From an uncultured Candidatus Saccharibacteria bacterium (lineage in GTDB: Bacteria; Patescibacteriota; Minisyncoccia; Phycocordibacterales; UBA5272), in the NCBI GenBank assembly GCA_964391935.1, contig CAYMOA010000002.1, positions 995 to 64,994 on the forward strand: a DNA stretch of 64,000 bases. Reading direction: 5' to 3'. Position 1 is the first letter of the stretch. Every line of letters begins with the position of its first letter. The position numbers and the translations under genes are program-made. Shown in pieces: positions 4,528-61,994 of the stretch. A model generated the notes under the pieces. That model had not been told where the DNA came from. It saw only the letters and a list, made by a program, of their open reading frames with translations, and ran no database searches.

Positions 4528-4529
4528 AT

Positions 4530-5066: not shown

Positions 5067-5097
5067 TCAGTCTAACACACCAGTCAAGATTTACAGA

Positions 5098-44697: not shown

Positions 44698-46008
44698 ATG
44701 AATCAAGAAACAATAGTAGACAAGTTAGTCTGGGTTCCTGCAAAGAGGAAAATATCAATTTTAAAACCATCCGAATACAATCCTCGCAAGATGACAGAAA
44801 ACGAAAAGAGAGATATTGAAAACTCTATTGATGGTTTTGGCCGTGTTGTACCACTTGTAGTGAATATAGGTTCTCGGGAAAATATCTTAATCGGAGGCCA
44901 CCAAAGATGGAAAATATACAAGGAAAAGAAGATTGAAGAAGTGGATGTAGTCATACCAAATCGAGAACTCACACTTGATGAGGAAAAAGAACTGAATCTT
45001 AGGTTAAATAAAAACCTTGGATCTTGGGATCAAGACTTACTCAAAGAAATGGATTTAGACCTCCTTTTAGGGGTTGGTTTCGGCGATGAAGAGTTGCAGT
45101 CTTTATTCGACAATGTGGAAGTGACAGAAGATGATTTTGATTTGGAAAAAGCAATTAAAGAGATTACCGAGCCTAGAGTTAAGACAGGAGAAATCTGGGA
45201 ACTTGGAAATCACCGACTGCTCGTAGGTGATTCTACTAACGAGGTACAGGTTAAACAATTAATGCAAACTGAGCTGGCGGATATTGTGTATTGTGACCCT
45301 CCTTACAATATCGGACTAGACTATTCCAAAGGCATTGGGAACTCTGAGAAATATGGGGGCAACTATTCAGGAAAAGATGATTCTAAGGGAGATAAAGAAT
45401 ACGGTACGTTCTTAGAGGAAAGTATTTCTGTTTCTAAATTGATTTCCAAACCAAATACGCACTTCTTTTATTGGTGTGATTCTAAGTACATTTGGCTAGT
45501 GCAAACCCTATACCAAAAATTTAGCATAACAAACAAAAGAGTTTGTCTATGGATAAAAAATAACCAGAACCCAACTCACAAAATTGCGTTTAATAAAGTT
45601 TACGAGCCATGCGTGTATGGGATCATTGGGAAACCATACCTGAATGCTGGTTTTAATAATGCAAATGAAGTGCTGAACCAAGAAGTTGGGAGCGGTAACC
45701 AAGTGCATGAAGAAATTTACGACATGATTGATTTATGGATTGCTAAAAGAGACCAGACCACGGAGTATCTGCACCCAACTCAAAAACCAGTAACTCTTAA
45801 TGAAAAGCCATTAAAAAGATGTTCTGCTCCTGGACATATTGTCTACTCTGGTTTTGCTGGAAGCGGAAGCGACTTAATCGCCTGCGAAACTCTAAACCGA
45901 AAGTGGAGAGGTGTGGAGCAAGATCTAATCTTTGCAACCATTGTGATCGATAGATGGGAAAAGTTTACTAATCAAAAAGCCAAACTACTTTATGGAAACA
46001 ATAAATAA
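44698..46008 (+). CDS. ParB-like nuclease domain fused to DNA methyltransferase (beta-class N6A/N4C)
   Basis: N-terminal KISILKPSEYNPRKMTE…GGHQRW (ParB/Srx fold). Motif IV CDPPYNIG and C-terminal motif I SGFAGSGS. Confidence 0.75.
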   Translation: MNQETIVDKLVWVPAKRKISILKPSEYNPRKMTENEKRDIENSIDGFGRVVPLVVNIGSRENILIGGHQRWKIYKEKKIEEVDVVIPNRELTLDEEKELNLRLNKNLGSWDQDLLKEMDLDLLLGVGFGDEELQSLFDNVEVTEDDFDLEKAIKEITEPRVKTGEIWELGNHRLLVGDSTNEVQVKQLMQTELADIVYCDPPYNIGLDYSKGIGNSEKYGGNYSGKDDSKGDKEYGTFLEESISVSKLISKPNTHFFYWCDSKYIWLVQTLYQKFSITNKRVCLWIKNNQNPTHKIAFNKVYEPCVYGIIGKPYLNAGFNNANEVLNQEVGSGNQVHEEIYDMIDLWIAKRDQTTEYLHPTQKPVTLNEKPLKRCSAPGHIVYSGFAGSGSDLIACETLNRKWRGVEQDLIFATIVIDRWEKFTNQKAKLLYGNNK

Positions 46009-46741
46009 CGGAGACATTTTTGAAATTGGTGAGCATGTTATCGCCTGTGGTGATTCCTTGGATACAGCGTTTGTGAAAAAAGTAATAGGCAATAAAAAGA
46101 TTCGAGCAATCATTACTGACCCACCTTACGGCGTTGCTTATGTAGAAAATAAAAAGGATCTGGACCTATTAGGAACTGAAAGTAAAGAAATTCTCAACGA
46201 CCATCTTCAAACAGAAGAGGAATATTCATTGTTTATTAAACAATGGCTAGATGCAGTAACACCTTACTTAGATACCTATAACGCAGTATACATTTTCAAC
46301 AGCGACATTATGTTCCCTGCACTTAGAACTGGCCTGAAGCAAGCAGGGCTGTACTATAGCCAGATGATTATCTGGCTAAAAAACCAACCGATTATGGGAA
46401 TGAAAGATTACCTTTCTATGTTTGAACTCGTTGCATATGGGTGGTTTGGAAAACACAAAATGGAAAGGTCTAAAGCTAAAAGTGTAATTTATTACCCCAA
46501 GCCCAGTTCTTCTAAATTGCACCCAACACAAAAACCCGTTGGACTTATCCGCAAGATAATTCCAAATTCTACAAAAGTAAATGAATATATTTACGATCCA
46601 TTTCTAGGTAGTGGAACTACTGCCGTAGCTTCCCATCACCTAGGTCGAAGGTGTATTGGGATTGAAATGGAGTCAAAGTATGTAAAGATAATTCTCACTA
46701 GATTAGAAAAATTAACCGGTGAAAAAGCAGTAAAAATATAA
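45992..46741 (+). CDS. DNA methyltransferase (beta-class N6-adenine/N4-cytosine)
   Basis: Motif IV ITDPPYGVAY precedes motif I DPFLGSGTTAVAS (beta-class order). HPTQKP motif. Confidence 0.8.
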   Translation: METINNGDIFEIGEHVIACGDSLDTAFVKKVIGNKKIRAIITDPPYGVAYVENKKDLDLLGTESKEILNDHLQTEEEYSLFIKQWLDAVTPYLDTYNAVYIFNSDIMFPALRTGLKQAGLYYSQMIIWLKNQPIMGMKDYLSMFELVAYGWFGKHKMERSKAKSVIYYPKPSSSKLHPTQKPVGLIRKIIPNSTKVNEYIYDPFLGSGTTAVASHHLGRRCIGIEMESKYVKIILTRLEKLTGEKAVKI

Positions 46742-49004: not shown

Positions 49005-51317
49005 CTATAGAATCTTATTGCCTGAAATAGTTACCCATTCCTGGTTTTTAAAGATCATAATTCCACCAAATAATTTCTGAGTTTTGCGGTTTTTGTTGTC
49101 ACTTAGAATATATTTTTGCAAAGCTTCGTTTTTGGCTTTAGTGTAAGTATCTTCATCTCTGTCTTCTTCGTCCTTAGTTTCAAAGATTCCAATTCTGCCA
49201 TCAGAAAATTCTACAAGATAATCTGGATAAAAAGTATAGACCTCACTTTTATATTCATATTTAATCCCAAAATAATCTCTTCGCATTTCGCCATTTTTGT
49301 ACCACCAATTTATGTTGTTTAGACTCTCTAAATGTTTCTCAAAGTTCCTTTCAGGATTAGATCTATTCTTCGATAAAAAACAAGGTTGGAGTAGGTGCTT
49401 AGAATAATTTTTAATTTCCTCATCAACGTCCTTATTAAAATAATCTGATTCAGCAATTTCAAAATTTTCAATTTTGTGCTCTGTGTCTTCTTTTGCCTTT
49501 TTCTCTCTAACTAGAGAATACTTTTCAACTGCTTTTAGGAAGATGGGTTTAATGTTATTTTTATTCATTAAAAGAAAGGCCTGAGAACTCAAGGCACCAT
49601 TTTGTACTACTTCCTCGCCAAACAGGTCTCTACAGGCCAAAAACCATGCCACATTCATCGCAGAGACCGATCTGACAATGTTGGTAAAGGGTGCCATCAT
49701 ACTTTTAAATAGTGATTTAGAAATGAACTCAATTTGCCTGTCATTTACATTTAAAGATTGCACTACTCCGTCGTCATCTTCAAACACATTTTTGTAATTA
49801 TCTACTTCTGTCACTTCAAGTGCCAAATCTTTGATTACTTCATGTGAAATATTTACCACATCGAATTGCCAACCCTTATCCCCGTGAACATTACTTTTGA
49901 TATTATTTAGAATTTTGATATTGTTTTTAAAATCTCCAACTTTTAAATCGGACGAAGTTATAAACTGATCAAGTAAAACTTTTCGGAAATCTGCTTTAAT
50001 ATCTTGATAGTCTGCACGTTCTTTGTAGAAGGACGTTAACTTAATTGGTTTGTATTTGTCACTTCTCTTTGATGGTTGGTCACCCAGAATTTTAGGACTG
50101 TAATTTTCAATATCAAAGCTAGCACTGCTGGTATTGGTATATACATAGGCTTTGTTTAATTTGACATCTTCATAATACATTTGCTCAGGCATTCTTAAAA
50201 TTCTACCTAATACTTGAATATTAAAGATTTCGCTTTCACTTTCTCTAAATTTAAGTAATATCTGTGCACGAGGACAATCCCATCCTGTATCGATAGCTTG
50301 TTTGAAAATTAAATATTCTTGAGGTGCATTGTTTTTAGAAATATTTTCTAAATTTCTATCTTCCTCTTTTTCTTCATCTAACCAAATAGATAGTCTTTCA
50401 TCCCCCAATTTTATCCCTTTATTTTTTTCTAAATATTGGAGCACTGTATTTTTCACAACCTCACCATTTTGACTATTGGGCAGTTGAATTAGTAAGAGTG
50501 GATTGACATCAATATTATTGTTTTTGTAAACCTGTGCAAGCTCATCTCTTTTAGCAATTGCCGTACTCAAAATCGCTTCGTCACTATCCTCAGTCTTCTT
50601 AAAGTTAAAATCAAAATTTACCAGTATTTGATCCTTTATCATTTCCTCGTCAATCACATCTTGGGGATTTATTTTTTCAATCCAACCCTTACCCTCAATT
50701 ATATCATCGGCAGATAATTTAATGATAGGAGTAGCTGACACTTCTATAGTTACAGTAGGACTGATAAGATCAATAATTTCTTTGCCTCTATCAGCACTCG
50801 TGTGACTATGAGATTCATCAATTATTAGTATTATTTTTCTATCTCTTCCTATTGTATTGTTTAAAATCTCTCGGAAGTTTGTGTGATCACCATCTTTCAT
50901 TACTATATTTTTCCACTCTTGAGTTTTACCATCCTTTGCTCTAATTTTTTCCCAGTTAACTACCATCACAGAATCTTTTAATAACTCATATTGAGAGGTA
51001 CCAAAAACCGTATCAATACTTTGAACTACAGGATACCCTGAAAATACATTTTCCAATGATCTCTTGCTTTGATTGTGTAAATCTCCTTTACCAATAGATA
51101 GCCAAATAAAGGTAAAATCTAATTTTCTATTCTCCTCCTTACTTTTATTCACCAAAGACTCAATAATACTAGCCATCATAATAGTTTTACCAGAACCAGT
51201 TGGGGCTTGTAATACAGCTGTCTTTTTGTCTCTCTTATCTGACTGTAAAAAACTGCTAACTTTTTCTGTTAAGTTTTTCACTGCTTTTTCTTGATAATTT
51301 TTAAGATTTATTTTCAT
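49005..51317 (-). CDS. Type III restriction enzyme Res subunit (SF2 helicase-like)
   Basis: Walker A LQAPTGSGKTIMMA, DExH LIIDESHSH. 770 aa, immediately downstream of the Mod gene. Confidence 0.8.
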   Translation of the reverse strand: MKINLKNYQEKAVKNLTEKVSSFLQSDKRDKKTAVLQAPTGSGKTIMMASIIESLVNKSKEENRKLDFTFIWLSIGKGDLHNQSKRSLENVFSGYPVVQSIDTVFGTSQYELLKDSVMVVNWEKIRAKDGKTQEWKNIVMKDGDHTNFREILNNTIGRDRKIILIIDESHSHTSADRGKEIIDLISPTVTIEVSATPIIKLSADDIIEGKGWIEKINPQDVIDEEMIKDQILVNFDFNFKKTEDSDEAILSTAIAKRDELAQVYKNNNIDVNPLLLIQLPNSQNGEVVKNTVLQYLEKNKGIKLGDERLSIWLDEEKEEDRNLENISKNNAPQEYLIFKQAIDTGWDCPRAQILLKFRESESEIFNIQVLGRILRMPEQMYYEDVKLNKAYVYTNTSSASFDIENYSPKILGDQPSKRSDKYKPIKLTSFYKERADYQDIKADFRKVLLDQFITSSDLKVGDFKNNIKILNNIKSNVHGDKGWQFDVVNISHEVIKDLALEVTEVDNYKNVFEDDDGVVQSLNVNDRQIEFISKSLFKSMMAPFTNIVRSVSAMNVAWFLACRDLFGEEVVQNGALSSQAFLLMNKNNIKPIFLKAVEKYSLVREKKAKEDTEHKIENFEIAESDYFNKDVDEEIKNYSKHLLQPCFLSKNRSNPERNFEKHLESLNNINWWYKNGEMRRDYFGIKYEYKSEVYTFYPDYLVEFSDGRIGIFETKDEEDRDEDTYTKAKNEALQKYILSDNKNRKTQKLFGGIMIFKNQEWVTISGNKIL

Positions 51318-51327
51318 GGATTTGTTT

Positions 51328-53157
51328 TTATTTATTGTTACTATTATTTTTTAATATTGTCTCGTATATTTCTAGAATCTTTTGAGGTATTTCTTCTATG
51401 TTTATACCTTTCCATTTTCTATAATCGTCAATAAAGTCATCCACATTTCTAAGCGAGAAAATATATGCACTTTTGTCTAAGTCATCTTGATTTTTAAGAT
51501 CAGCTCTCATATCGTCTAAATAACTATCATCTAAATCGTAATAAATGCCAATTGTATGTTTTATAGTTTTTCTATTTTCAACTTTTACTCCACTAAATAT
51601 TTTGTACATCAAAGTATCACCATCTTTAACTTCTTTTTCTAAATTAAATGCATTTTCTTTTAAACAGAGCATTTCTGTACAAGCTCGCATCAATCTCATT
51701 TTCATATTGTCGGTGTGTTTTGTACGATCAATGAAGTCTGTTTCCAAATATTTTAAATTTCCACCAAGCTCATCTTTTTCCATAATATTGGAAAGTCTTT
51801 TAAACGTTACCTCTTCACAGATTTTATGCTCACTTTTTTCATCGCCATTATTGGTCACTAAAATAAACTGACGATTTCCTTTATCTTCTTTATTGAGACT
51901 TAAAACAGCATGTGCAGTTGATCCAGAACCTGCGAAGAAATCCAAAACCGTAGAGCAATCATTAGAAACCCATTTTATTAATTGTTTTATAAGTCTGATA
52001 GGCTTTTTACCATTTTTAAATTCTACATCTCCTTCTTTTTCAACATTCATCATATCCGAGTAAAACCCTTTCCAAAGATCACCCCTTATTGAGCATCTTG
52101 CAAACTCACCACCGAAGTCATCAGACTTTTTTAACCCATCACTTAGAAATGCTAATTGTTGAATTTTTCCAGTACCTGTCTTAGTTAAAAAGTAACCCCT
52201 TATATTTACGACAGCCCCAATTTTTATTTTCTTTTTTTCCTGATCAGACAATGAGATATCACAATCCATAAGTCTGCAAATCTTATCTGCATATTTGTAA
52301 AATTCTTCTTTAAATTCTGGTATAAGACTGCATAGAGTCTCAATAGAATTGACCGAAAAACTTTTTACTTGTTTTAGTATTTTATACTTGTCAATAAATA
52401 CACTTAGGGTTGGAAGACTTAATATACTGCTAATATTTTTTAGATCGCCATCGTAAAAAAGATTATAGTGGGAGTCGTAATAATTAATTTTGTCATACAA
52501 TAAATTTTTAACAATTTTCTTATTTTTACTTTTTGAGAACATTAGAACATATTCATAATTCTTAACCACCGACCCATTTTGGGCCGACCTAACTTTCATT
52601 CCTTGTGTTTTTGTTAGTTCTACACCAATATTTGCTACAAACGAATTTATACCAAACACCTGATCACACAATAATTTTAATTCTGCTTGTTGATTGTTGT
52701 CTATACTCACAAATAATGTACCATTATCTGATAGTAAAGATTCAGCAAGTAATAATCTTTTCTCCATAAACGACAACCACTTACTATTTCTGAAACTATC
52801 TTCAGAGTCTACAAACTTATCGTTGTAAATAAAATCCTTGTTGCCAGTATTGTATGGTGGATCGATATAAATTACATCAATAGAATTTTTATGCGTATAA
52901 TTAAGAACAGAAAGTGCATGATAATTATCACCCTCAATTAAAATATTTGTGGGTTTATTTTTATCATTTATTATTTCTTTGAACTTCTTTCCTTCCTTAA
53001 CTTTAAGCACAGGAAATTTTGTGTTGCATTCCTCAACTACCTTTTCAGGCTTATCTTCCCAAACTAAACCGTATTTACTTTTTTGTTTAAGTTTTTTATT
53101 TTCTTCTTCTAATTCTAAAATTCTGTGAGTAAGATTTACATCTAAATTTGATGACAT
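51328..53157 (-). CDS. Type III restriction-modification Mod methyltransferase (beta-class)
   Basis: Motif IV VIYIDPPYNTG N-terminal to motif I LDFFAGSGSTAHAV. 609 aa. Confidence 0.8.
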   Translation of the reverse strand: MSSNLDVNLTHRILELEEENKKLKQKSKYGLVWEDKPEKVVEECNTKFPVLKVKEGKKFKEIINDKNKPTNILIEGDNYHALSVLNYTHKNSIDVIYIDPPYNTGNKDFIYNDKFVDSEDSFRNSKWLSFMEKRLLLAESLLSDNGTLFVSIDNNQQAELKLLCDQVFGINSFVANIGVELTKTQGMKVRSAQNGSVVKNYEYVLMFSKSKNKKIVKNLLYDKINYYDSHYNLFYDGDLKNISSILSLPTLSVFIDKYKILKQVKSFSVNSIETLCSLIPEFKEEFYKYADKICRLMDCDISLSDQEKKKIKIGAVVNIRGYFLTKTGTGKIQQLAFLSDGLKKSDDFGGEFARCSIRGDLWKGFYSDMMNVEKEGDVEFKNGKKPIRLIKQLIKWVSNDCSTVLDFFAGSGSTAHAVLSLNKEDKGNRQFILVTNNGDEKSEHKICEEVTFKRLSNIMEKDELGGNLKYLETDFIDRTKHTDNMKMRLMRACTEMLCLKENAFNLEKEVKDGDTLMYKIFSGVKVENRKTIKHTIGIYYDLDDSYLDDMRADLKNQDDLDKSAYIFSLRNVDDFIDDYRKWKGINIEEIPQKILEIYETILKNNSNNK

Positions 53158-53158
53158 A

Positions 53159-53310
53159 ACAGGGATGGGTTTTGTCTATTAATATTCTAACGAGAAACAC
53201 TAAGCCCCACGTTAGCTTGAGTCTTGCGACTCCAAAAATTAGTTTCCTAATAATTGACCATCCCTGATCAGCTGAACGTGGGGTTCAGTATAGGGATGGA
53301 TTTTATTTGT
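53159..53310. repeat. Interleaved inverted/direct repeats between Mod and the recombinase (candidate recombination site or structured leader)
   Basis: cagggatgg / ccatccctg and ccccacgttagc / gctgaacgtgggg are interleaved. Direct repeat agggatgggttttgtctatt / agggatggattttatttgtg. Confidence 0.4.
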
Positions 53311-53424
53311 GCCATATTTTGAAAAACTTAGGCAACTATATTGTTAAAGAATTATACCATATTTTGGTATGGTGCCATTCTAATATAATCCAAGGGAATT
53401 GTGTAGTCTACTTGTCTACATATA

Positions 53425-53510
53425 GACACCTGAGACGCTCCTTGACTTATCTAGGCACTTGCGTCATCAATATAGGTGTATGAAAATACAAACAAATAAA
53501 CAACCAGAGA
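53425..53510. repeat. Direct repeat copy B (~75 bp) spanning the promoter and 5' end of the serine recombinase gene
   Basis: gacacctgagacgctccttgacttatctaggcacttgcgtcatcaatataggtgtatgaaaata… matches copy A at 48851. Confidence 0.6.
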
Positions 53511-54781
53511 TAGAGGAAAAATTGAGGTATTGCCTTTACTGTAGAAAAAGTAGTGAATCAGAAGAACGCCAAGTAATGAGTATAGACTCTCAAATTAAGG
53601 AAATGCTCAATTTGGCAGAGCGAGAAAAACTAGAAATAGTAAATATCAAAAGAGAGGCTCATAGTGCAAAAGAAACAGGGCAAAGACCCGTCTATAACGA
53701 AATGATCAAGGATTTAAAAGAAGGAAAATTCAATGCAATTCTTACTTGGGCACCTGACAGAATATCTAGAAACGCAGGAGACTTGGGTATGGTTGTAGAC
53801 TTAATGGATCAAAAGGTTTTAAAAGAAATTAGAACTCACTCACAAACATTTACTAATAACCCAAATGAAAAATTCTTGCTGATGATTTTAGGATCACAAG
53901 CAAAATTAGAAAACGATAACAGAGGAATAAATGTTAAGCGTGGGCAAAGAACAAAAGTTGAGCTTGGCTTTTGGCCTGGACTCGGACCTCTTGGATATTT
54001 AAATCAAAGATCCATGGACAAAAAAGGAGTGCTCATAGTAGACCCAGATAGAGCCCCTATTGTGAAGAAAATATTTGAGAAAGTTGCTTATGAATACCAG
54101 TCAGGAAGGAAAATTTATAACTGGCTACGAGAAGTGAATTTTTATACCAGAGGTAACAAACCACTAACCTTAGGTGGAGTTTATAGAATTTTAGACAACA
54201 CCTTTTATCATGGAGTATTTGAATATCCAAAAAGATCAGGTAATTATTTTACTGGAAAACATGAACCATTAATCAGCAAAGAGTTATGGGATAAGGCTCA
54301 GGAATTTTTAAAAAGAGACAAGATTGTACGATCGAATAAAGAATTTACTTTTACCAAATTAATTGTTTGCGGTTATTGTGGAAGTGGAATTTCTGCTGAG
54401 GAAAAATACAAAAACTTAAAAAATGGAACACAAGCTAGATATATATACTACGGCTGTGGCAGGAGTAAAGATAGGAATTGCAAAAATAAATATATTCAAG
54501 AGGTTGAACTTATAGAAGAACTAATAAAAATAGTTGATAAGGTCAATGTTGACGAGATAGGACTAAAGGTAAAAATGGAAGAAGAAATTAAAAGATTTAA
54601 TATTTTTCAGAGGTCAATACTAAATACAAAAGAAAAGTTTGAATTGCCGAAGGCAACTGTAGTAAAGAATTATCTAAAATATATTTTGAAAGAGGGAAGC
54701 AAAACTGAAAAAAGAGAGGTCTTGGGAAATCTAAGAAGTAGAATCAGTTACAAGGATAAAGAATTAACTTTAGTAAGTTAA
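53480..54781 (+). CDS. Large serine recombinase
   Basis: Start moved to the ATG (MKIQTNKQ…). Catalytic-Ser region YCRKSSESEERQ, WAPDRISRN, Cys cluster CGYCGSG…CGRSKDRNC. Confidence 0.8.
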   Translation: MKIQTNKQPEIEEKLRYCLYCRKSSESEERQVMSIDSQIKEMLNLAEREKLEIVNIKREAHSAKETGQRPVYNEMIKDLKEGKFNAILTWAPDRISRNAGDLGMVVDLMDQKVLKEIRTHSQTFTNNPNEKFLLMILGSQAKLENDNRGINVKRGQRTKVELGFWPGLGPLGYLNQRSMDKKGVLIVDPDRAPIVKKIFEKVAYEYQSGRKIYNWLREVNFYTRGNKPLTLGGVYRILDNTFYHGVFEYPKRSGNYFTGKHEPLISKELWDKAQEFLKRDKIVRSNKEFTFTKLIVCGYCGSGISAEEKYKNLKNGTQARYIYYGCGRSKDRNCKNKYIQEVELIEELIKIVDKVNVDEIGLKVKMEEEIKRFNIFQRSILNTKEKFELPKATVVKNYLKYILKEGSKTEKREVLGNLRSRISYKDKELTLVS

Positions 54782-54789
54782 AATATCCC

Positions 54790-56838
54790 TTATAAATCTT
54801 TTAAATTGTCTGCTAAGACTTCACCAAGAACAACGGGTAGATCTTTAGCTTCACTTGCAACTTTTGTAAATTCTTGACTCCCATTATCGCTATAAGTTGA
54901 CTCTACACTTCTACCACCTTCAGTAATACCTATCGCAACTACAATAATACCCAATGCCCTTAATTCTTCAATCACTTTTTGCACTCGTTGAGGACTATCA
55001 CTTTTACCATCTGTCATAACAACTATTATTTCTTTAGTTTCTTTTTGTTGTAGTTCTTCTAATCTTTCAGGATCATTTTGGATTTCTTTTAATATAGATT
55101 CTAGACAGTTAAAATCTGGAGTAGAATCCCCGGGCGCAGAATTTAAAATTGCACAGGTTTCAACCCTATCCTTTTTAGAAAAACTATCAGACATTTTTTT
55201 GAAAGATTTAAGATCATCGTGGGTATTCTGGAAAGTCCAAATTTCCCAAAATATCTCTAGTGTTTTAACTAAATTAGCTTTTTCTTCTTCAGCTAAGTCT
55301 TGCAATTCTTTCTGACTTTCCATAGTCATTACAATTGCCTTTTGCAATTCAATTAATTTCTGACCCCCCATTGAACCTGATCTATCCAAAACAAAAGTTA
55401 ATTTTACCTTACCAAATAAATCTCCTTTCTTTTCTTTAACTTCTGTGTCCTGCCAAACTTTTGGATGCAAGTTTCCAGCTCTGGCACTTGCAAGCAACTC
55501 TCCTGGTTCTACCAATTCGTCTCCTTCCTCGACAGGATATTTAGGTTTAAAGCTTTGCTTAACTCTCCTAGAAATAATTCTTTTAATTAAATTACTCAAA
55601 TCTTTTACAACACTCTCATTTGTCTCTGGGTTAATAATCGAATCTAAATCTCTGACAATATTTTCGTAATTTCTAAGATCTTCTACTTTAACGCCAATAT
55701 GCTCAGCTTGTCTTTCTAAAGATTTTTCTTCAGCAGTTTTTCTGTTGTCAGGATTTTCTAACCATTTTTCTAAAGCTTTCTCTTGCTCTTCAACGGGAAC
55801 AGCATTCATTGTTTTTTTCTCCGCCTCGTCATAATCTTTTTTAAATACCTGGTTGTAGTCTCCATCTCCAGATTCCTCACCAGTTGTCGCATCTGGATTT
55901 TGTTCTCCTTTTCCTTTTTCAGATTTTTTTCCTTTTTTCTTTTCTTTACTGAACCTCTTTTTAATCTTGTCCATAATACTATCTTTTTCTTGTGAACCAC
56001 TTTGAGATTTTGACTCCCCACCTGACCCATTACTTTCAGATTTTTCTCCATCTCCAGATTTATTATTCTCGTCTTGTTTTTTCTTATCTTCTACATCCTT
56101 TTTACGCAACTCTTCCATCATGGGACGAATAATCCTGTTTTGTATCTCCAATCTCTTAGACATTGGCACGTTAGGATCTGTAATTGTCTTTATAAGATCA
56201 ATATTTCCATTTCTAGTTTTAAATTTTCTTAATTGGTCTATTTTCAGCCTAACATCAGGATCAACTACACAATTGTCTCCAGTTCTTTCTTCACGCAAAA
56301 TAGCTTGTGGGAATTGTAAATGCTTTGGTTGCTTTGTAAAATCTAACTCTCCAGTTTTCTCGTCTGCTGGAAATAAATCTTCTCTGTAAAGTCTAGTTTC
56401 AGTATCTTTAACCTGCTTGTTTGTTTTACTAATTACAGCTCTATTTTCTCTGATATCAGCTATGCAGTTATCTAAAATACCATAAGCTCTATCATTTTTG
56501 ATATCTTGTAAATAATCTTGAAAGACTTGCCAACCTCCTGGTTCTTTTAAGACTTGGACTTTTTCTAATAAGTGCTCTATTTCATGCCTAACTGCAAAAG
56601 CTGACTTTTCATCAGAAAGTCCAAATTTACTTTGGTAAAATTTATCATTTACATAAATTGTTCCTTTTTCTAAGTCGAAAGCAAAAGTATCCAGGCCTGA
56701 AGGGGCAGGCTCAATTTTAATTTTACCTTTAGCATACAACTCAAAAATCTCTCTATGGTTTTCAAAAAAAGTATCAGCCTTACCTTTATTTTCAGCATCA
56801 CCTTTTTTCCTTGTTGCCATTTCAATCCTCGTATTCAT
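54790..56838 (-). CDS. vWA-domain protein with N-terminal zincin-like (HExxH) domain and charged low-complexity linker
   Basis: HEIEHL in the N-terminal third. MIDAS motif VLDRSGSMGG (DxSxS) in the C-terminal vWA. K/E/S-rich linker. 682 aa. Confidence 0.7.
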   Translation of the reverse strand: MNTRIEMATRKKGDAENKGKADTFFENHREIFELYAKGKIKIEPAPSGLDTFAFDLEKGTIYVNDKFYQSKFGLSDEKSAFAVRHEIEHLLEKVQVLKEPGGWQVFQDYLQDIKNDRAYGILDNCIADIRENRAVISKTNKQVKDTETRLYREDLFPADEKTGELDFTKQPKHLQFPQAILREERTGDNCVVDPDVRLKIDQLRKFKTRNGNIDLIKTITDPNVPMSKRLEIQNRIIRPMMEELRKKDVEDKKKQDENNKSGDGEKSESNGSGGESKSQSGSQEKDSIMDKIKKRFSKEKKKGKKSEKGKGEQNPDATTGEESGDGDYNQVFKKDYDEAEKKTMNAVPVEEQEKALEKWLENPDNRKTAEEKSLERQAEHIGVKVEDLRNYENIVRDLDSIINPETNESVVKDLSNLIKRIISRRVKQSFKPKYPVEEGDELVEPGELLASARAGNLHPKVWQDTEVKEKKGDLFGKVKLTFVLDRSGSMGGQKLIELQKAIVMTMESQKELQDLAEEEKANLVKTLEIFWEIWTFQNTHDDLKSFKKMSDSFSKKDRVETCAILNSAPGDSTPDFNCLESILKEIQNDPERLEELQQKETKEIIVVMTDGKSDSPQRVQKVIEELRALGIIVVAIGITEGGRSVESTYSDNGSQEFTKVASEAKDLPVVLGEVLADNLKDL

Positions 56839-56858
56839 AGGATGAAGTATACAATATT

Positions 56859-57851
56859 TTATTGACTCTTGGGTACTTTTTCCTTTAGTTCAGTCTGTAG
56901 TTTGCTACTATAGCAATGCTTCAAAAAGCCTAAATATGAATGGATATTTGTAGCCGAAACCTTACTCAAAAATCTCTTCTTGTTTTTGGTCTTAATGGCA
57001 ATATATTTAGGAAATACCTTATAGCCTAAGAAAGTAACTCCACTGGCTAGAGTTCTGATAAACCTGTTTTCCTTCTTAATTTCTAATTTTAGACTTAAGG
57101 ATAGAAAGTTTTCGATTTCTCTTTTATAATTTTCTAGAATTTTCCTATCAGGATCCAAAATTACATAATCATCTGCAAAGCGTATATAGTACTTTGCTTT
57201 TAATCTTTCCTTTATAAAAGTGTCCAACTCATGCAGGTAGACATTTATAAAAAGTTGTGAGGTAACATTACCCAAAGGGATACCTTTATTTGGAAATCTG
57301 TAGTTAAAACTTTCAATAATTTTACATAAAATATTTAGTAAATCTTTTTCTTCAATATATTTTTCTAAAAGTTTTTTAAGAATTATTTGATCGATACTAG
57401 CAAAACATTTTCTAATATCTAATTTTAGAACATAGACTGTCTTTGTGTTATTTTTTCCACACTTCCTACCGAACTCTAAAAACCTTCTCACAGCCCTCTG
57501 TGTTCCTTTATTGATTCGACAAGAATACGAATCAAAAATAAAAACTTTTTCAAAATATTGATACAAATTGTTAAACAGAACATAATGAATAAATCTATCT
57601 TTTACGGTTGCTTTGTGTATATCTCTTTTTTTAGTATCACTTAAAACAAAGTGAGTATATTTTTGATGTTCATAGGTTCCAGATATAATTTCACTCCGAA
57701 TATCCAAAATGTTTTTATACAAATGTAATAAAAATTCACATACATCATCTTTTTTAGTTTTTCCTTTTTTAAACTCTTTCCAACATAAAAACATCTTCTC
57801 TACAGTAAACATATCTCTTAAAAGCGTTTGATTATATATGGGGATGGACAT
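56859..57851 (-). CDS. Diversity-generating retroelement (DGR) reverse transcriptase
   Basis: Motifs match Brt-type DGR RTs: ISGTYE…KKRDIHKATVKDRFIHYVL, VLKLDIRKCFASIDQ, motif 4 GIPLGNVTSQLFINVYLHELD (the DGR-specific [I/L]GxxxSQ), catalytic YIRFADDYVIL. Confidence 0.85.
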   Translation of the reverse strand: MSIPIYNQTLLRDMFTVEKMFLCWKEFKKGKTKKDDVCEFLLHLYKNILDIRSEIISGTYEHQKYTHFVLSDTKKRDIHKATVKDRFIHYVLFNNLYQYFEKVFIFDSYSCRINKGTQRAVRRFLEFGRKCGKNNTKTVYVLKLDIRKCFASIDQIILKKLLEKYIEEKDLLNILCKIIESFNYRFPNKGIPLGNVTSQLFINVYLHELDTFIKERLKAKYYIRFADDYVILDPDRKILENYKREIENFLSLSLKLEIKKENRFIRTLASGVTFLGYKVFPKYIAIKTKNKKRFLSKVSATNIHSYLGFLKHCYSSKLQTELKEKVPKSQ

Positions 57852-57862
57852 ATAATATTCTT

Positions 57863-58234
57863 ATGCAACCAAAGCTACCAAGTATTACAATTAAGATTTT
57901 AGAAAGTTATAAACTCTGGCACGAACTGAGGAAAACGCTTGAGAAGTTTAATAAATATTCTATTGGCTTAAAAATTGATAGTTTGTATGTTGAAATCATC
58001 GAAAGACTGTTCCAGGCTCAGTATATAAGTAAAGAGAAAAAAGTAGAAGTTTTGCAATTGGCTACAATCAAATTAGATACTTTGAAATTTTTTGTCTTCA
58101 CTCTACTAGAGATAAAAGGTACTAGTGAAGAAATATACCTAAAATTGAATGGCACATTAGAAGAAGTAGGGAAAATGCTTTACGGATGGAAACAGCAGGC
58201 ATTAAAACAAACTGAAACAAAAACTACCCAATAA
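57863..58234 (+). CDS. Accessory variability determinant (Avd-like four-helix-bundle protein)
   Basis: 123 aa, helical, basic. It sits between the RT and TR, which is the usual DGR position, but on the opposite strand. C-terminal EEVGKMLYGWKQ resembles the Avd/IVS-protein family. Confidence 0.55.
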   Translation: MQPKLPSITIKILESYKLWHELRKTLEKFNKYSIGLKIDSLYVEIIERLFQAQYISKEKKVEVLQLATIKLDTLKFFVFTLLEIKGTSEEIYLKLNGTLEEVGKMLYGWKQQALKQTETKTTQ

Positions 58235-58262
58235 AATTGAGTAGAAAATAAATAAGTGTCGT

Positions 58263-58394
58263 CTAGGGAGCAGGAGTACACGGTCATTCGAATTCACGTC
58301 ATTGTCTAGCCAATTACCGTTCGGTTTGAACTCCGACCCATTCCAGTTCACCATCGGCACATTACAGTTACCGTTGGAGTTCCGAAAAAGAGAT
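58263..58394 (-). repeat. DGR template repeat (TR), 132 nt
   Basis: 130/132 identical to the VR at 58726-58857. Both mismatches are A in TR on the coding strand versus G/C in VR, giving Asn AAC to His CAC and Asp GAC. Confidence 0.8.
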
Positions 58395-58719
58395 GTATAT
58401 AAAATTGTGAGTGTCACCACAGTCGTCGCCAACTGTTGAATTTATGTTAGTATCGTAATACTTAATCTTATACAGACTTTTGATTTTTTTGATCAAAAAC
58501 TTACACACGCTTTTTATAACTTCTTATGGCTATAAAAATTCTGGTTTTAAGTTTCTCGATGTGTATAGAAAATACTTTTACATATCTTCATATTCATACA
58601 CATATATTAATTATTAACCGAAATAAGATTTAATGCAAATAAAAAAAATTTTCGAGGGCTAGGACAAAGAACAAAAGACAAAGGATCAAAGGACAATTCA
58701 AATTTTTAAATCACAAAGA

Positions 58720-61131
58720 TCAACTTCTAGGGAGCAGGAGTACACGGTCATTCGAATTCACGTCATTGTCTAGCCAATTACCGTTCGGTTTGAACTCCGA
58801 CCCATTCCAGTTCACCATCGGCACATCACAGTTACCGTTGGAGTGCCGAAAAAGAGAAGATGGTGTGTAATACCAATTTCCATCTTTGATGTTCGCTAAG
58901 TTAGGATTATTGGGGTTTTCTTGGATCCACTTCCAATAATCTAGGCCTGGAATATAGTATTTTTTAGATAGAACTTTAGCGGTATATTCTACAAAATGGT
59001 ATCTTTTAATACTTGTAATGTTATTTTTCTTAGCCCAAGCTTGGAAGTCTTTATCTGTGTTGGGATTCATTATTTCTGGCTTCACTTTCTTAAATAAGTT
59101 TTCTAAGTCCTTAGGGGTTGGTTGATTTAAATGAGTGACTTCTCCTGCTTTGGATTGGTCGGCAGTAATTTTTGTTTTGAAATCGAAAGTGTCTAAAGCA
59201 AACTTTTCAACAGTTTTGGGTGGATAAGTCTGTGACCAACTCTTTTTAGCAGTCTTTATTAAAAAGTCTCGTTCAGCGTTTATTTGTGCTTCTGTTTTTT
59301 GCCCCTTAAAATTCTCTGTCCTCACAGGAGTTCCATTCTCAGCCTCTCCTTTTCGAGCTTCGTCCATTACTTCATCTACTTGTTTAGTGGCTTTTTGTTT
59401 TTTAAGTTCAAAAGGGTCTAGTTCTGATAATTGCTTTATATTCAAAACTTCGACTTTTTTAGAAGCTTTTAATTCTTGATCTTTAATTTCTGTCCAATTA
59501 GATACACTTAATTCTGATTCAGATATTTTTATTTTCTCATCTGTATTTAAAGTTCGAAGTAGCCCATGAGAAGCTAGGATTTTAGCCACAAACAACTTGT
59601 CCTCCTTGTACTCCCCAAAGTTTAATTCTGTTGCAAGTCTTTCATCCAAAAATTCTACAAAACTAATTTGCTTATCTTTTTTACTTACTACTTTCCAACC
59701 TTCTATAATATTCTCAATAGTTCTTTGGTTCATGACTAGCTTTTTAAGAGCTTTGACTTTACCCAGATCACCTACACCACTTAGAGTAGCAACTTCCTGA
59801 CTCATCACTCCGTTGTATCCATCTTGGATATCTTTCATAGCTTTCAGTAAATTTGGAACTGTTTCTTCCAGGTCATATCTTGAGAATTCTGCCTGACCTT
59901 TACTATCCACAATACGAGATAGGAAAATATCAAAAGCTTCTATCGGTTGAGTGTAATTAATTTCTAAATTGTTCTGTGCAAATTCGTTAGCAACTTCTGG
60001 CGGTAGATCATTTCTTTCTAAGTTCTTTTCAGTTTTTAAGTTAGCTGTGAAAATCAATTGAAATCCTATCTGAATTTTAATACTCCCATTACCAGGAATA
60101 GAAACAGTATCTCCTACTTTTGCATTCATAATTCCTTTAATCATAGACATCTGGTCTTTTGGTAAAGCAGTAAATTCATCAAAGATACAAACACTACCAT
60201 TTTGCATAGCACGAGCCAGCGGCCCGAAATCAAAAAATGTTTTAGAGGCTCCATCTTCAACGGAAATTCCAGTTCTTCCATAGATATTTGACTCTCTGGT
60301 TTGTGGATTACAATAAATTATTTCTGGATTCTTTCCAGTTAATTCTTTAGAAGCAAACCTCGCTAATGATGTTTTACCTGTTCCTGTTGGACCATGCAAA
60401 AACATAGGCTTACCAATAGTCATTCTAATTTTTATCTGCTCTAAATATTCTTGCACACTTTCAACTTGGGCAATATGTCCTTCTTTTTTTAAATCTTCAG
60501 AAAGAGACAACAAATATGCTGATCTGAATTCGATAGGGTTGCCAACTTCCAGAGTTTGGAGTTCTGTTTCAATCTTACCAATTTCGGTTCTAAGTTCTTC
60601 GTAGAATTTTTCACTTTCTGTATTTCCATTGCTTCGAAAATCCAAAAACACACGACTTGCCGTTTCTTCAAATTCTCGTAGAGCTTTTTGTAAATCTTGG
60701 ATTCTTAAAAAGAATTTATATTTATCTTCAAAAACCTCATTTTTTAAATACAGCTCTCTTTCTTTACTACGTTTTTCCTTGACAGCTCTTTTTGCATCTC
60801 CTAATGTTCTATATTTCTCTCCAAAGTCATCTACAGCTTCGTTATAGGCTTTCAGTACTTGAATCTGTCTATTTAAGTTCATCATTTTCACACTTGGAAC
60901 ACCTTTACTTTTTGCAGTTTCTCTTTGCAGTTCAGTCTCTAGAATTTCAATCTCCTCTTTTCGCACTTCTTTCATTCTTGTTTTTCTATCCGCATTACTG
61001 GAATCTTTCGATAGTTTCGGCTTTTTAGATCCTGTCTCTTTAGGACTAGAAAAATTTAATCCTAATTTACTCCAAAATGACTGTCGAGCAAATTTTCTCT
61101 GTGTTCTCAGTTTATCGAAGTTTTCTGCCAT
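58720..61131 (-). CDS. DGR target protein: MoxR-like AAA+ ATPase with long coiled-coil N-terminus and hypervariable Asn-rich C-terminal domain
   Basis: Walker A FLHGPTGTGKTSLARFA, Walker B VCIFDEF. 803 aa. The C-terminal 44 aa are encoded by the VR. Confidence 0.75.
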   Translation of the reverse strand: MAENFDKLRTQRKFARQSFWSKLGLNFSSPKETGSKKPKLSKDSSNADRKTRMKEVRKEEIEILETELQRETAKSKGVPSVKMMNLNRQIQVLKAYNEAVDDFGEKYRTLGDAKRAVKEKRSKERELYLKNEVFEDKYKFFLRIQDLQKALREFEETASRVFLDFRSNGNTESEKFYEELRTEIGKIETELQTLEVGNPIEFRSAYLLSLSEDLKKEGHIAQVESVQEYLEQIKIRMTIGKPMFLHGPTGTGKTSLARFASKELTGKNPEIIYCNPQTRESNIYGRTGISVEDGASKTFFDFGPLARAMQNGSVCIFDEFTALPKDQMSMIKGIMNAKVGDTVSIPGNGSIKIQIGFQLIFTANLKTEKNLERNDLPPEVANEFAQNNLEINYTQPIEAFDIFLSRIVDSKGQAEFSRYDLEETVPNLLKAMKDIQDGYNGVMSQEVATLSGVGDLGKVKALKKLVMNQRTIENIIEGWKVVSKKDKQISFVEFLDERLATELNFGEYKEDKLFVAKILASHGLLRTLNTDEKIKISESELSVSNWTEIKDQELKASKKVEVLNIKQLSELDPFELKKQKATKQVDEVMDEARKGEAENGTPVRTENFKGQKTEAQINAERDFLIKTAKKSWSQTYPPKTVEKFALDTFDFKTKITADQSKAGEVTHLNQPTPKDLENLFKKVKPEIMNPNTDKDFQAWAKKNNITSIKRYHFVEYTAKVLSKKYYIPGLDYWKWIQENPNNPNLANIKDGNWYYTPSSLFRHSNGNCDVPMVNWNGSEFKPNGNWLDNDVNSNDRVLLLPRS
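58726..58857 (-). repeat. DGR variable repeat (VR) at the 3' end of the AAA+ target gene
   Basis: Encodes the C-terminal FRHSNGNCDVPMVNWNGSEFKPNGNWLDNDVNSNDRVLLLPR of ORF 58720..61131. It differs from TR only at two adenine positions. Confidence 0.8.
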
Positions 61132-61436: not shown

Positions 61437-61524
61437 TGGCGGAAGCTGTGAGATTCGAACTCACGGAGAGTTGCCCCTCGCTTGTTTTCAAGACAAGTAC
61501 CTTAAACCACTCGGTCAAGCTTCC
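61437..61524 (-). tRNA. tRNA-Ser (anticodon TGA), CCA encoded
   Basis: Manual fold. Acceptor GGAAGCT/AGCTTCC with discriminator G and CCA. Anticodon stem CTTGT/ACAAG with loop CTTGAAA. Long variable arm GCGAGGGGCAACTCTCC. T-arm GTGAGTTCGAATCTCAC. Confidence 0.75.
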
Positions 61525-61535
61525 ATATTATAATT

Positions 61536-61994
61536 TCACTTTTCCCCATAATGCTCCTCACAGTGACAGTTTGGGCAAATGATTTCTAAATTTTCCAATC
61601 TATTATCTTTATTGTTTCTGTTTTTATGATGAACCTGAAGAATATCAAGACTTTTATACCCGCATCTCTCACATTTTTTCCCACGATCTTCAAATAATCT
61701 TATTTTCAAACTTTGAATAGTAAACACATTATCTCTCGGTCTTCCTACTTTATATTTTATTCCTTTGCGTAATTTATTTGAACAAATTCTAGAACAGGTT
61801 TTTTCATTCTTATTTGATAAAATTTGTTTTGCACAAATCAGACACTTGGTGTATTTTTTATTATTTTCTCCGTTGCACTGTAAGCTACAAAATAGAACTC
61901 CGTTACTTCTTTTAATTTGTGCAGGTCTTCTATAGATAGCTTTCCCGCAAACAAAACATTTTGTATTCGGTTTTCTTGTGTATGGCTCGGGCAT
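61536..61994 (-). CDS. HNH endonuclease with N-terminal Cys-rich zinc-finger-like repeats
   Basis: C-terminal HHKNRNNKDNRLENLEIICPNCH is an HNH motif. Multiple CxxC pairs lie upstream. Confidence 0.7.
   Translation of the reverse strand: MPEPYTRKPNTKCFVCGKAIYRRPAQIKRSNGVLFCSLQCNGENNKKYTKCLICAKQILSNKNEKTCSRICSNKLRKGIKYKVGRPRDNVFTIQSLKIRLFEDRGKKCERCGYKSLDILQVHHKNRNNKDNRLENLEIICPNCHCEEHYGEK

Follow-up and report, generated by a model that had tools for sequence, protein, structure and literature searches.

The window analysed here, a 64,000-nucleotide stretch of DNA from a CPR (Patescibacteria) bacterium, contains a cassette in the order target gene, template repeat (TR), inverted avd (accessory variability determinant), reverse transcriptase (RT) and vWA gene. 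Inspection of its ORFs and motifs found the ORFs intact and the catalytic motifs present. Considering the cassette together with its relatives, we conclude that it is almost certainly a complete, active and chromosomally located DGR of the CPR type. Its features are as follows.

54790-56838, minus strand: partner protein, 682 aa (ORF, Pfam VWA)
54799-55410, minus strand: vWA domain of the partner, residues ~477-680 (MIDAS D485, S487, S489, T573, D610)
56074-56838, minus strand: N-terminal domain of the partner, residues 1-255 (invariant motif columns)
56859-57851, minus strand: DGR reverse transcriptase, 330 aa (RVT_1 8e-18)
57863-58234, plus strand: avd, 123 aa (Pfam bAvd, NCBIfam DivGenRetAVD, PHROG)
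58224-58244, minus strand: hairpin then T-run, 18 nt past the TR and overlapping the avd stop codon
58262-58393, minus strand: TR, 132 nt, 34 adenines
58394-58719, minus strand: AT-rich spacer, target stop codon to TR
58720-61131, minus strand: target gene, 803-aa cytoplasmic AAA+ ATPase (ORF, Pfam AAA_5, full-length alignment)
58723-59169, minus strand: C-terminal module with the VR, residues ~655-803 (helices then five strands in the AF2 model)
58726-58857, minus strand: variable repeat (VR), in frame, target codons 759-802, stop codon 6 nt further on
60019-60405, minus strand: AAA_5 (MoxR/dynein/midasin-type) ATPase core, residues 243-371 (Walker A 247, Walker B 314)
60472-61131, minus strand: N-terminal region, ~220 residues (long helices predicted, AF2)

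TR and VR are identical at 130 of 132 positions, and 98% identity in a direct repeat of 132 nt is far above chance. Both mismatches fall on TR adenines (TR-A to VR-C or VR-G) and change AAC to CAC (Asn763His) and AAT to GAT (Asn769Asp). The initial annotation had the identity, the VR coordinates, the adenine positions and the first codon change right, but set the TR one base off, at 58263-58394, and gave the second codon change as AAC to GAC where the TR codon is AAT. With an adenine fraction of 0.26, two of two mismatches on A (p ~0.07) do not amount to a significant bias in the window alone, and the related loci therefore give the decisive evidence.

In close relatives, the mismatches lie at TR adenines in 22/22, 23/23 and 20/23 cases. 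Over 6,325 nt, three assemblies of a single strain show just 18-24 differences, which are confined to the VR apart from two bases immediately 3' of the stop codon in L073. They share an identical TR, and the VR changes fall on TR adenines in 20/20, 16/17 and 11/11 cases. Compared with the TRs of strains with target proteins 81-93% identical, the window TR differs at only 4-6 of 132 positions. The initial annotation had suggested aligning the repeats across related genomes, and in every relative examined the TR is conserved while the VR differs essentially at adenine sites. It had also suggested surveying AAA-vWA pairs for DGRs, and 23 further CPR loci scanned carry an A-biased TR/VR pair at the 3' end of the ATPase gene. 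Its claim of a complete DGR is thus borne out by the TR/VR pair, the RT and avd, with relatives showing activity at TR adenines. The diversity on offer is large, since the 20 adenine-containing codons of the VR, 12 of them AAY, allow ~10^17.8 possible peptides.

The RT carries the motifs LGNVTSQ (residue 193) and FADD (residue 225). It matches the 328-aa RT of PDB 8ub7, which we take to be the Bordetella phage bRT, at 9e-32, compared with ~1e-13 for group II intron and retron-type RTs, which upholds its earlier assignment to the DGR type over either of these. It also scores 297 bits against the phage RT family phrog_1423 and is 30-37% identical to the RTs of 99 phage records, Bordetella phages among them. 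The gene first described as Avd-like matches PHROG 'Avd protein of DGR' (1.3e-10), as well as Pfam bAvd (1.9e-7; 32 bits, below the 40-bit cut-off) and NCBIfam DivGenRetAVD (7e-11, also below cut-off), in keeping with that description. It lies on the strand opposite to TR, RT and target, an orientation that the initial annotation did not mention; avd and RT diverge, their start codons 11 bp apart, and avd is inverted in 28/28 related loci. We infer that the spacer is probably the site of the TR RNA promoter; it holds a sigma-70-like match at 58639-58610 (minus strand), of a kind no commoner in the region than in shuffled sequence. The hairpin beyond the TR (z = -2.15) could serve as a bidirectional terminator or belong to the DGR RNA, and a hairpin with a U-tract, built on unrelated stems, occupies the same place in L001-L004, L010-L015, L019-L021, L026-L028 and L060.

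The target consists of an N-terminal helical region, the AAA_5 core, a helical middle region and the VR-bearing C-terminal module, modelled by AF2 at a mean pLDDT of 74. Its Walker A and Walker B motifs (GPTGTGKT at 247 and VCIFDE at 314) are invariant among homologues and its match to Pfam AAA_5 (1.6e-15) is above the curated cut-off, confirming the AAA+ ATPase proposed at the outset. In fold the protein comes closest to CbbQ and NorQ, and it is an ATPase of the MoxR/CbbQ/NorQ type. Its homologues are found only in CPR. That the 803-aa ORF might be a fusion artefact, a possibility raised in the initial annotation, is ruled out by end-to-end alignment of the same full-length architecture with more than 20 (22) CPR homologues. 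Within the N-terminal region, where the initial annotation had placed a coiled coil, here a putative one, helices are predicted at residues 46-217 with pLDDT ~70-87, confidence is low at residues 1-45 and 106-137, and there is a weak profile match (E 0.002) to the coiled coil and AAA start of proteasomal Rpt4. The target has no hydrophobic segment (maximum KD19 = 0.91), and neither it nor the vWA partner has a signal peptide or membrane helix.

The C-terminal module is modelled at pLDDT 82-89 over residues 690-800; it has no Pfam or PDB sequence match, and fold searches identified no fold for it. Other CPR genomes also encode it by itself, as a protein of 200-300 aa, and many representatives of this length match only profile positions ~540-754. 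Second small DGR targets occur in related loci, and the same ATPase scaffold bears at least two unrelated types of VR module.

The partner protein has its HExxH domain at the N-terminus, followed by a low-complexity linker of acidic and basic residues and a helical region, and ends in the vWA domain, with HEIEH at 85 and DRSGS at 485 (AF2 mean pLDDT 74.7; linker residues 261-325 disordered). The match to Pfam VWA (1.1e-10) is accompanied by a vWA fold with an invariant MIDAS motif. In the N-terminal domain the invariant residues are H85-E86-x-E88-H89..E92-K93 and D123-N124-C125..D128..N132, and the AF2 model places three strands ahead of a long helix that carries HEIEH. The best PDB profile match, to minigluzincin MJ1213, extends across the strands and HExxH but is non-significant (E 0.09), and Pfam models gave no match to this domain. 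Thus, of the HExxH and vWA protein originally proposed, the vWA domain with its MIDAS and the HExxH motif stand, whereas the N-terminal domain appears zincin-like at the level of motif and predicted topology, which is weaker than the zincin label given there; statistics lend a metallopeptidase assignment no support.

Partner and ATPase genes are neighbours on the same strand in 14 of the 15 loci that have at least 4.5 kb on both sides, and their strands agree in 35/35. There is no third conserved component, no other gene family recurring in more than 6 of 60 loci. Across CPR, the ATPase is genetically coupled to one partner protein. Four loci have the pair but neither RT nor Avd within 5.5-10 kb, so it can exist without a linked DGR.

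CbbQ-CbbO and NorQ-NorD are MoxR AAA+ hexamers with vWA/MIDAS adaptors, the former remodelling Rubisco and the latter inserting non-haem iron into nitric oxide reductase. The locus shares their two-gene organisation of ATPase and vWA protein. However, CbbQ and NorQ are ~260-270 aa long and lack the long N-terminal helical region and the variable C-terminal module, CbbO and NorD lack an HExxH domain, and both systems serve fixed metabolic substrates with no DGR. Compared with the prototype DGR of Bordetella phage BPP-1 (mtd, avd, TR, brt), the locus has in common the [I/L]GxxxSQ motif of the RT, the presence of Avd and TR-adenine-specific changes in a C-terminal AAY-rich VR. The BPP-1 target, though, is a phage receptor-binding protein and not a cytoplasmic ATPase, and here avd is inverted and lies between TR and RT, with a hairpin and U-tract after the TR and no hairpin found after the VR.

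An AAA ATPase with a C-terminal variable domain is the commonest DGR target already reported in CPR, according to the account of Paul et al. 2017 (Nat Microbiol 2:17045) given by Doré et al. 2024 (PMC10907252). In Wu et al. 2018 (PMC5758913), the CPR targets called 'UVR4' were matched to the AAA domain of Midasin; the same authors described CPR targets of 'P-loop NTPase, category g1' and a CPR-typical 'B3' cassette architecture. Doré et al. 2024 (PMC10907252) proposed for CPR AAA-CLec targets that the variable domain does the sensing and the ATPase passes the signal on, and they assigned the majority of CPR RTs to a clade apart, RT clade 2 of Roux et al. 2021. Our locus shares with this published class its CPR-only homologues, an AAA_5/midasin-like ATPase, a VR at the extreme C-terminus and an avd orientation that likewise departs from the Bordetella order, and nothing essential is different. 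It is a clear example of that class and not a new kind of system; the novelty that the initial annotation implied for an ATPase target was overstated, going by Paul et al. 2017 as cited in PMC10907252 and by PMC5758913. What is added is the near-constant partner (14/15), the absence of a third component, CbbQ and NorQ as the proteins closest to the ATPase in fold, and the multiplicity of VR module types. The literature searched, with Paul et al. 2017 covered through the account of Doré et al., gave no mention of the vWA-zincin-like protein that is the conserved partner in the CPR family.

In multicellular bacteria, links between DGRs and MoxR-vWA pairs are known (Kaur et al. 2020, PMC7159879; Doré et al. 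2024, PNAS, PMC10907252), and DGR-linked MoxR-vWA conflict systems, with rare metallopeptidase fusions to the vWA component, were described by Kaur et al. 2020 (PMC7159879), who left CPR out of their statistics. The VMAP ternary systems of multicellular cyanobacteria, gammaproteobacteria and others share with our locus a MoxR-clade AAA+ ATPase and vWA protein in a DGR neighbourhood, a cytoplasmic NTP-dependent architecture and a peptidase-type domain on the vWA component. Their VR, however, is on the vWA protein or a separate sensor, whereas here it is on the ATPase, with neither VMAP nor any other third component, and the host is a CPR bacterium.

The RT reverse-transcribes an RNA copy of the 132-nt TR with random bases opposite adenines, and the mutated cDNA replaces the VR, so that as many as 20 codons are rewritten at the very C-terminal end of the target, in residues 759-802. 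Arguing from the workings of CbbQ-CbbO, NorQ-NorD, RavA-ViaA and midasin, we propose that an ATPase ring would display several copies of the variable, putatively lectin-like module, and that ligand binding to it could, by way of ATP hydrolysis, lead the ring to remodel its vWA partner or a MIDAS-held protein, which would release or activate the metallopeptidase-like domain. The likeliest role would be intracellular recognition directed against phage or mobile elements, or conflict signalling, with the DGR redrawing the specificity. The RM-rich setting, the lack of export signals in both proteins and the published ideas of Doré et al. 2024 and Kaur et al. 2020 speak for this reading, and the lack of a convincing PADLOC match speaks against it. 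We infer that a sensor or conflict function of the pair is plausible. The sensor/effector mechanism as such is tentative, and we would give it somewhat less than an even chance, whereas the explanation as a whole, DGR identity and mechanism together, seems to us moderately probable. Because CPR bacteria are episymbionts, a role in handling host-derived molecules is equally conceivable.

The pair might instead be no immune sensor but a substrate-adaptive chaperone or assembly factor like those for Rubisco and nitric oxide reductase, with the DGR retuning the protein or glycan that is gripped, be it host-derived (imported host molecules) or the cell's own (attachment-apparatus components before export). 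We regard this as unlikely, although CbbQ and NorQ, the nearest folds, are metabolic remodelling ATPases with vWA partners, four loci hold the pair with no DGR nearby, and PADLOC defence models gave no convincing match to ATPase or partner, the best being IetA, at 1.6e-5 and limited to the P-loop region. Host-cell interaction roles have also been suggested for some CPR/DPANN DGRs (Paul et al. 2017, as relayed by Doré et al., PMC10907252). However, ~10^17 binding variants would be needless for a fixed housekeeping substrate, both proteins lack export signals, the invariant HExxH domain suggests an effector protease over a pure adaptor, and the module is surrounded by RM genes (a type III res/mod pair and further methylases) and recombinases, not by metabolic operons. 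Those surroundings also fit cargo of an integrative mobile element that would border tRNA-Ser and include the serine recombinase and the RM genes, the module serving that element through exclusion of competitors or addiction, a reading that overlaps and is compatible with the sensor/effector explanation. A large serine recombinase (53459-54781) directly adjoins the vWA gene in the window, L072 and L074, the opposite end has a tRNA-Ser and an HNH gene, a second recombinase is at 40030-41727, and L073 has an upstream flank unlike that of the window, with MmeI/Eco57I-like and TaqI_C genes; transposons are moreover common beside CPR DGRs (Paul et al. 2017, in the citation by Doré et al., PMC10907252). 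Yet a 13-mer search gave no tRNA-end direct repeat as an attachment site, G+C content is uniform across the window, and more distant loci have different neighbours and no recurrent recombinase, and we consider that the element's own interests are quite improbable as the explanation.

It is very improbable that TR and VR in this genome are an ordinary duplication, or a product of gene conversion or assembly, with the DGR not currently diversifying the gene. Such a reading would draw on the small number of mismatches, with 2 of 34 TR adenines changed in the window VR against 11-23 changes in relatives, on their non-significant bias, and on the many related contigs that end exactly at the VR, where assemblers evidently struggle. 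Against it are the intact ORFs and catalytic motifs and the conserved TRs of relatives whose VRs vary at adenine sites. With the locus read as a functional DGR, the window VR copy may be recently reset, little diversified or mis-assembled through the TR. L074, with 11 changes, is in an intermediate state, so lightly mutated VRs arise naturally.

The element in the window is a diversity-generating retroelement (DGR), of a kind that is active in its relatives. Its genetic mechanism is the transfer of sequence from a template repeat (TR) to a variable repeat (VR) with mutagenesis of adenines. As the initial annotation had proposed, the element is complete: a reverse transcriptase (RT), an accessory variability determinant (Avd), the TR/VR pair and an intact target are all present, and VR variation in relatives is almost wholly confined to adenine sites. 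On the minus strand, the TR is followed by the inverted 123-codon avd, the 330-codon RT and the 682-codon partner.

Components of the element (window positions, strand, description)
54790-56838, minus: partner gene encoding the HExxH and vWA protein, 682 codons (Pfam vWA 1.1e-10)
56859-57851, minus: RT, 330 codons (RVT_1 8e-18; LGNVTSQ at residue 193, FADD at 225)
57863-58234, plus, opposite to TR, RT and target: avd, 123 codons
58262-58393, minus: TR, in non-coding DNA 326 nt past the target stop codon
58720-61131, minus: target ATPase, 803 codons, AAA_5 with C-terminal VR
58726-58857, minus: VR, in frame at the 3' end of the target ORF (codons 759-802 of 803), ending 6 nt ahead of the stop

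Over 52-64 kb, a repeat finder gave a single outstanding direct repeat (132 nt, 98% identity), which is the TR/VR pair; no repeat copy was found in the vWA partner gene. The initial annotation had the VR exactly and the TR one base off, at 58263-58394. The two copies differ by an A to C change from TR to VR (AAC to CAC, N763H) and an A to G change (AAT to GAT, N769D), so that both mismatches fall at TR adenines, as had been reported, although the second TR codon had been misread as AAC. Two out of two has a chance probability of about 0.07 and is weak by itself. The VR includes 12 AAY codons, and it would allow some 10^17.8 peptide variants. The 3' end of the repeat, about 15 nt (CTCCTGCTCCCTAGA), is invariant, and TR and VR part ways directly after it, which is compatible with an IMH. 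We looked for a hairpin 3' of the window VR and found none; a post-IMH hairpin is present in only 34% of DGRs (Wu et al. 2018, PMC5758913).

The case for diversification therefore comes from relatives. Three close homologues of the target (93, 86 and 81% identical), from other samples and with the same gene order as the window, have TRs that differ from the window TR at only 4-6 of 132 positions. Between the VR and the TR of each locus there are 22, 23 and 23 differences, with 22/22, 23/23 and 20/23 at TR adenines. A finer comparison is provided by L072, L073 and L074, three assemblies of one strain from three JGI samples that encode the partner identically; that protein is 83% identical to the window's, so the comparison speaks for a strain at about this distance and not for the window's own population. 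These contigs share 6,325 nt, running from the final 2.4 kb of the target through the TR, avd and RT to the vWA gene, over which they differ at 18-24 positions, all of them in the VR except for 2 nt right 3' of the stop codon in L073. Their TRs are 100% identical, and 20/20, 16/17 and 11/11 of the VR departures from the TR lie at adenines. Variation restricted almost entirely to the VR and to adenine sites among otherwise near-identical contigs is what mutagenic retrohoming predicts, and it rules out an ordinary duplication. More widely, A-biased TR/VR pairs lie at the 3' end of the ATPase gene in about 30 CPR loci.

The window VR is itself close to a copy of its TR, with 2 of 34 adenines altered, compared with 11-23 changes in the relatives. 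One possible explanation is a recent reset of the VR, through low-mutagenic homing or gene conversion; another is an assembly path that followed the TR in a mixed population. About 14 public contigs stop at the VR, 0-2 nt from where the ATPase gene ends (L029, L031, L039, L040, L042, L047, L048, L049, L052, L053, L054, L057, L059 and L062). Heterogeneity of the VR within a population, or the TR/VR repeats themselves, would produce contig breaks at this point, and as a result automated surveys would often miss the DGR beside these ATPase genes.

The RT is nearer to DGR enzymes than to those of group II introns or retrons, which agrees with the type first assigned to it. Its best PDB match is 8ub7, a 328-aa 'reverse transcriptase', together with eight sister entries (9e-32, 114 bits), against about 1e-13 and 55 bits for RTs of the group II intron and retron type. 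From its length of 328 aa we tentatively take 8ub7 to be the Bordetella phage bRT. The phage RT family phrog_1423 matches at 297 bits, and the RTs of 99 phage records, five of them from Bordetella phage, are 30-37% identical to the window RT. Among NCBIfam models a group II model was the only one to respond, below its cut-off (118 of 300 bits). By its motifs and sequence similarity the enzyme is of the DGR type. Avd is matched by Pfam bAvd (1.9e-7) and NCBIfam DivGenRetAVD (7e-11), each under its curated cut-off, and by the PHROG family 'Avd protein of DGR' (1.3e-10), and it is kept beside the RT in 28 loci.

The target had been described as an AAA+ protein, and its profile bears this out: AAA_5 scores 57.8 bits against a curated cut-off of 22 bits, and the Walker A (GPTGTGKT) and Walker B (VCIFDE) motifs are invariant across the family. 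Its profile search also reaches Midasin (8e-7) and NorQ (7e-5), its fold is nearest to members of the MoxR clade, and its N-terminus is predicted to be a long helical region. By analogy with the MoxR-type class, a hexameric ring, ATP hydrolysis and contact with the vWA partner would be expected. We considered that the 803-aa ORF might be a fusion artefact and rejected this, because full-length homologues occur in many species; an alignment of 23 proteins from numerous CPR lineages covers the architecture over its full length, so the ORF stands as a genuine single protein.

In the partner, the vWA half of the earlier assignment holds, with MIDAS residues D485, S487, S489, T573 and D610 invariant in the family alignment. 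The metallopeptidase half found no match among Pfam families searched with the N-terminal domain. The N-terminal 255 residues do contain an invariant HExEH..EK (H85, E86, E88, H89) and a second invariant helix, DNCxxDxxxN, downstream of it, in which D123, D128 and N132 are invariant and E131 nearly so. Three short strands precede the HExxH helix in the predicted structure, and residues 261-325 are predicted to form a charged disordered linker. The best match of this domain is the minigluzincin MJ1213, weak at E 0.09, with an alignment that spans exactly the strands and the motif; since this is the sole database echo, we call the domain putatively zincin-like, at the level of motif. Neither target nor partner yielded a signal peptide or membrane helix when searched for them.

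A word-index search with the target gave more than 250 hits, nearly all of 740-810 aa, and the few with names were Patescibacteria; an exhaustive profile search, taken to E 1e-30, gave 304 clusters (50% identity). We then scanned GTDB representatives, one genome per species and without the window's own genome among them, and recovered 68 loci; members of the target family are encoded in about 60 of them. Nearly all are labelled as CPR/Patescibacteria MAGs; L015 and L043 carry non-CPR labels. Locus ORFs were compared with the window's proteins, and completeness was counted over the 15 loci that have 4.5 kb or more of flank in each direction. The vWA-HExxH partner is present in 14 of these 15 (E 1e-46 to 1e-79 for each half) and RT plus Avd in 10. 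Arrangement is equally regular: the partner is on the ATPase strand in 35/35 cases, downstream of the RT in 24 loci and directly upstream of the ATPase in 11, the RT is on the target strand in 27/27, and Avd is on the opposite strand in 28/28. The pairing of ATPase and vWA protein is thus tight and near-obligate. When all ORFs of 60 loci were clustered in search of a further recurrent gene family, only ATPase, vWA, RT and Avd recurred, besides antisense shadow ORFs, the next real family reaching at most 6 of the 60 loci. The system is therefore binary, ATPase plus vWA protein, with a DGR attached.

Several variants of the locus were seen. L008, L036, L044 and L051 have the ATPase-vWA pair but neither RT nor Avd in the 5.5-10 kb of flank available to each side; the pair may be served in trans by a DGR at another place in the genome, or it may function without diversification. 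L005 has tandem ATPase genes (147-2546 and 3818-6217) with identical E-values, an inverted avd after each, one RT and one vWA gene, which reflects either a recent tandem duplication that took in target and avd or a repeat introduced in assembly. The C-terminal module also occurs by itself, in many proteins of 200-300 aa found by the profile search, and several loci have small second targets of this type served by the same TR. A subfamily of the ATPase (L034, L037, L038, L041, L043, L063, L027, L005 and protein P0109) ends in an unrelated VR module that is paired with a TR of its own, and often has extra small targets elsewhere in the locus. Thus the same ATPase scaffold has swapped variable modules.

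The locus is a member of a published CPR target class and not a new kind of element. The AAA-CLec class (Paul et al. 2017; UVR4/g1 in Wu et al. 2018) has, as the window does, a CPR host and an AAA/P-loop domain upstream of a C-terminal VR. It was published in 2017-2018, on the account of Paul et al. given in Doré et al. (PMC10907252) and Wu et al. (PMC5758913). The CPR 'UVR4' targets were reported to match the Midasin AAA domain, with the fold of the VR domain left open, and the B3 cassette subtype, distinct in avd/TR order and orientation, makes up 90% of CPR DGRs (Wu et al. 2018, PMC5758913). That the ATPase transduces signals sensed by the C-terminal region has been suggested for CPR AAA-type targets (Doré et al. 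2024, PMC10907252), and the sensor-transducer idea more generally dates from 2020-2024 (Kaur et al. PMC7159879; Doré et al. PMC10907252). The element's identity is as the initial annotation had it, and the locus would not surprise a specialist. In the literature searched, where Paul et al. 2017 was represented through papers citing it, we found no mention of the vWA-HExxH protein that accompanies the CPR ATPases near-obligately.

Another published comparison is with the VMAP ternary systems, DGR-associated MoxR-vWA systems that carry the variable domain as a fusion to their vWA protein; CPR were left out of those statistics (Kaur et al. 2020, PMC7159879). Their third component usually bears a peptidase, nucleotide-generating or adaptor domain, and their MoxR protein has an unstructured N-terminal region with WxhapG and PsWRxa motifs (Kaur et al. 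2020, PMC7159879). The window locus shares their logic. However, its VR is on the ATPase rather than the vWA component, and no third component recurs in the 60 loci. The lack of a third component and the position of the VR place it outside the VMAP ternary family.

The module lies within a variable region of the genome (40030-53157 and 61437-61994).

Genes around the element (window positions, description)
40030-41727 and 53459-54781: two large serine recombinases
44698-46741: three additional DNA methylase genes (one encoding a ParB-like N-domain)
49005-53157: type III res/mod pair
61437-61524: tRNA-Ser
61536-61994: HNH protein

In the relative L073, MmeI/Eco57I-like and TaqI_C genes adjoin the DGR locus. 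A search of the whole window for an attachment site gave no second copy of at least 13 nt of the tRNA-Ser region. A phage origin of the window was rejected, given its CTP synthase, histidine kinase, ABC transporter and other chromosomal genes and the absence of phage structural genes.

In the MoxR-vWA pairs CbbQ-CbbO, NorQ-NorD and RavA-ViaA, and in midasin, an ATPase ring grips and remodels a client via a vWA/MIDAS adaptor. By analogy with these, the target ATPase would form a ring that shows several copies of one variable module; occupancy of the modules might be coupled through ATP hydrolysis to the vWA partner, whose charged disordered linker and HExxH domain would provide the output. Such a machine could serve as a housekeeping chaperone or in conflict and recognition. 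We lean tentatively towards conflict and recognition, a sensing function that is plausible but held with less than even confidence, because of the cytoplasmic location, the huge repertoire and the surrounding res/mod genes, methylases and recombinases, with those beside L073. Against it, no defence-family model matches: PADLOC had none for the partner, and the ATPase received P-loop-level matches only.

CPR bacteria have more DGRs than almost any other group, and their commonest target is this MoxR/CbbQ/NorQ-like ATPase, paired near-obligately with one vWA-HExxH protein and nothing else. The locus offers a compact model for the function of cellular DGR targets, as distinct from phage ones: with a single partner, the question comes down to two proteins that could be reconstituted together. 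A link is also drawn between CPR DGRs and the MoxR-vWA systems of multicellular bacteria for which a role in conflict has been proposed. A stronger reading is that CPR independently built a two-protein, DGR-programmable machine for intracellular recognition, a MoxR-type ring carrying hypervariable lectin-like modules with a vWA-tethered metallopeptidase, whose RT lineage and variable-domain placement would be unlike those of the VMAP ternary systems of multicellular bacteria. We regard this as rather doubtful; if true, MoxR-vWA systems could sense in an anticipatory, immune-like way outside multicellular organisms as well, and intracellular recognition would be among the main purposes that DGRs serve in the smallest cells known.

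Some smaller features of the locus may be noted. In the window and in L001-L004, L010-L015, L019-L021, L026-L028 and L060, a G+C-rich hairpin with a T/U run behind it lies 15-25 nt past the TR; its stem sequences are wholly different between loci. The window's hairpin (58224-58244, minus strand) overlaps the stop codon of avd, which is convergent. Loci of the subfamily with the second type of VR (L034-L043, L063) lack this arrangement. The hairpin could be a bidirectional terminator, in which case the TR would be transcribed as a short RNA of its own, or it could be a component of a priming structure. The start codons of RT and avd are divergent and 11 bp apart, and the best sigma-70-like match for each gene, a match to consensus only, falls within the other's initial codons (plus strand, TTGATT-17-TATAAT at 57828-57856; minus strand, TTGGTA-18-TATTAT at 57881-57852). 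Finally, a full-length match to the Rfam LOOT RNA (RF03000) at 53219-53334 on the minus strand, scoring 42.5 bits against a gathering threshold of 46.4 (E 1.6e-5), sits between the type III methylase and serine recombinase genes.
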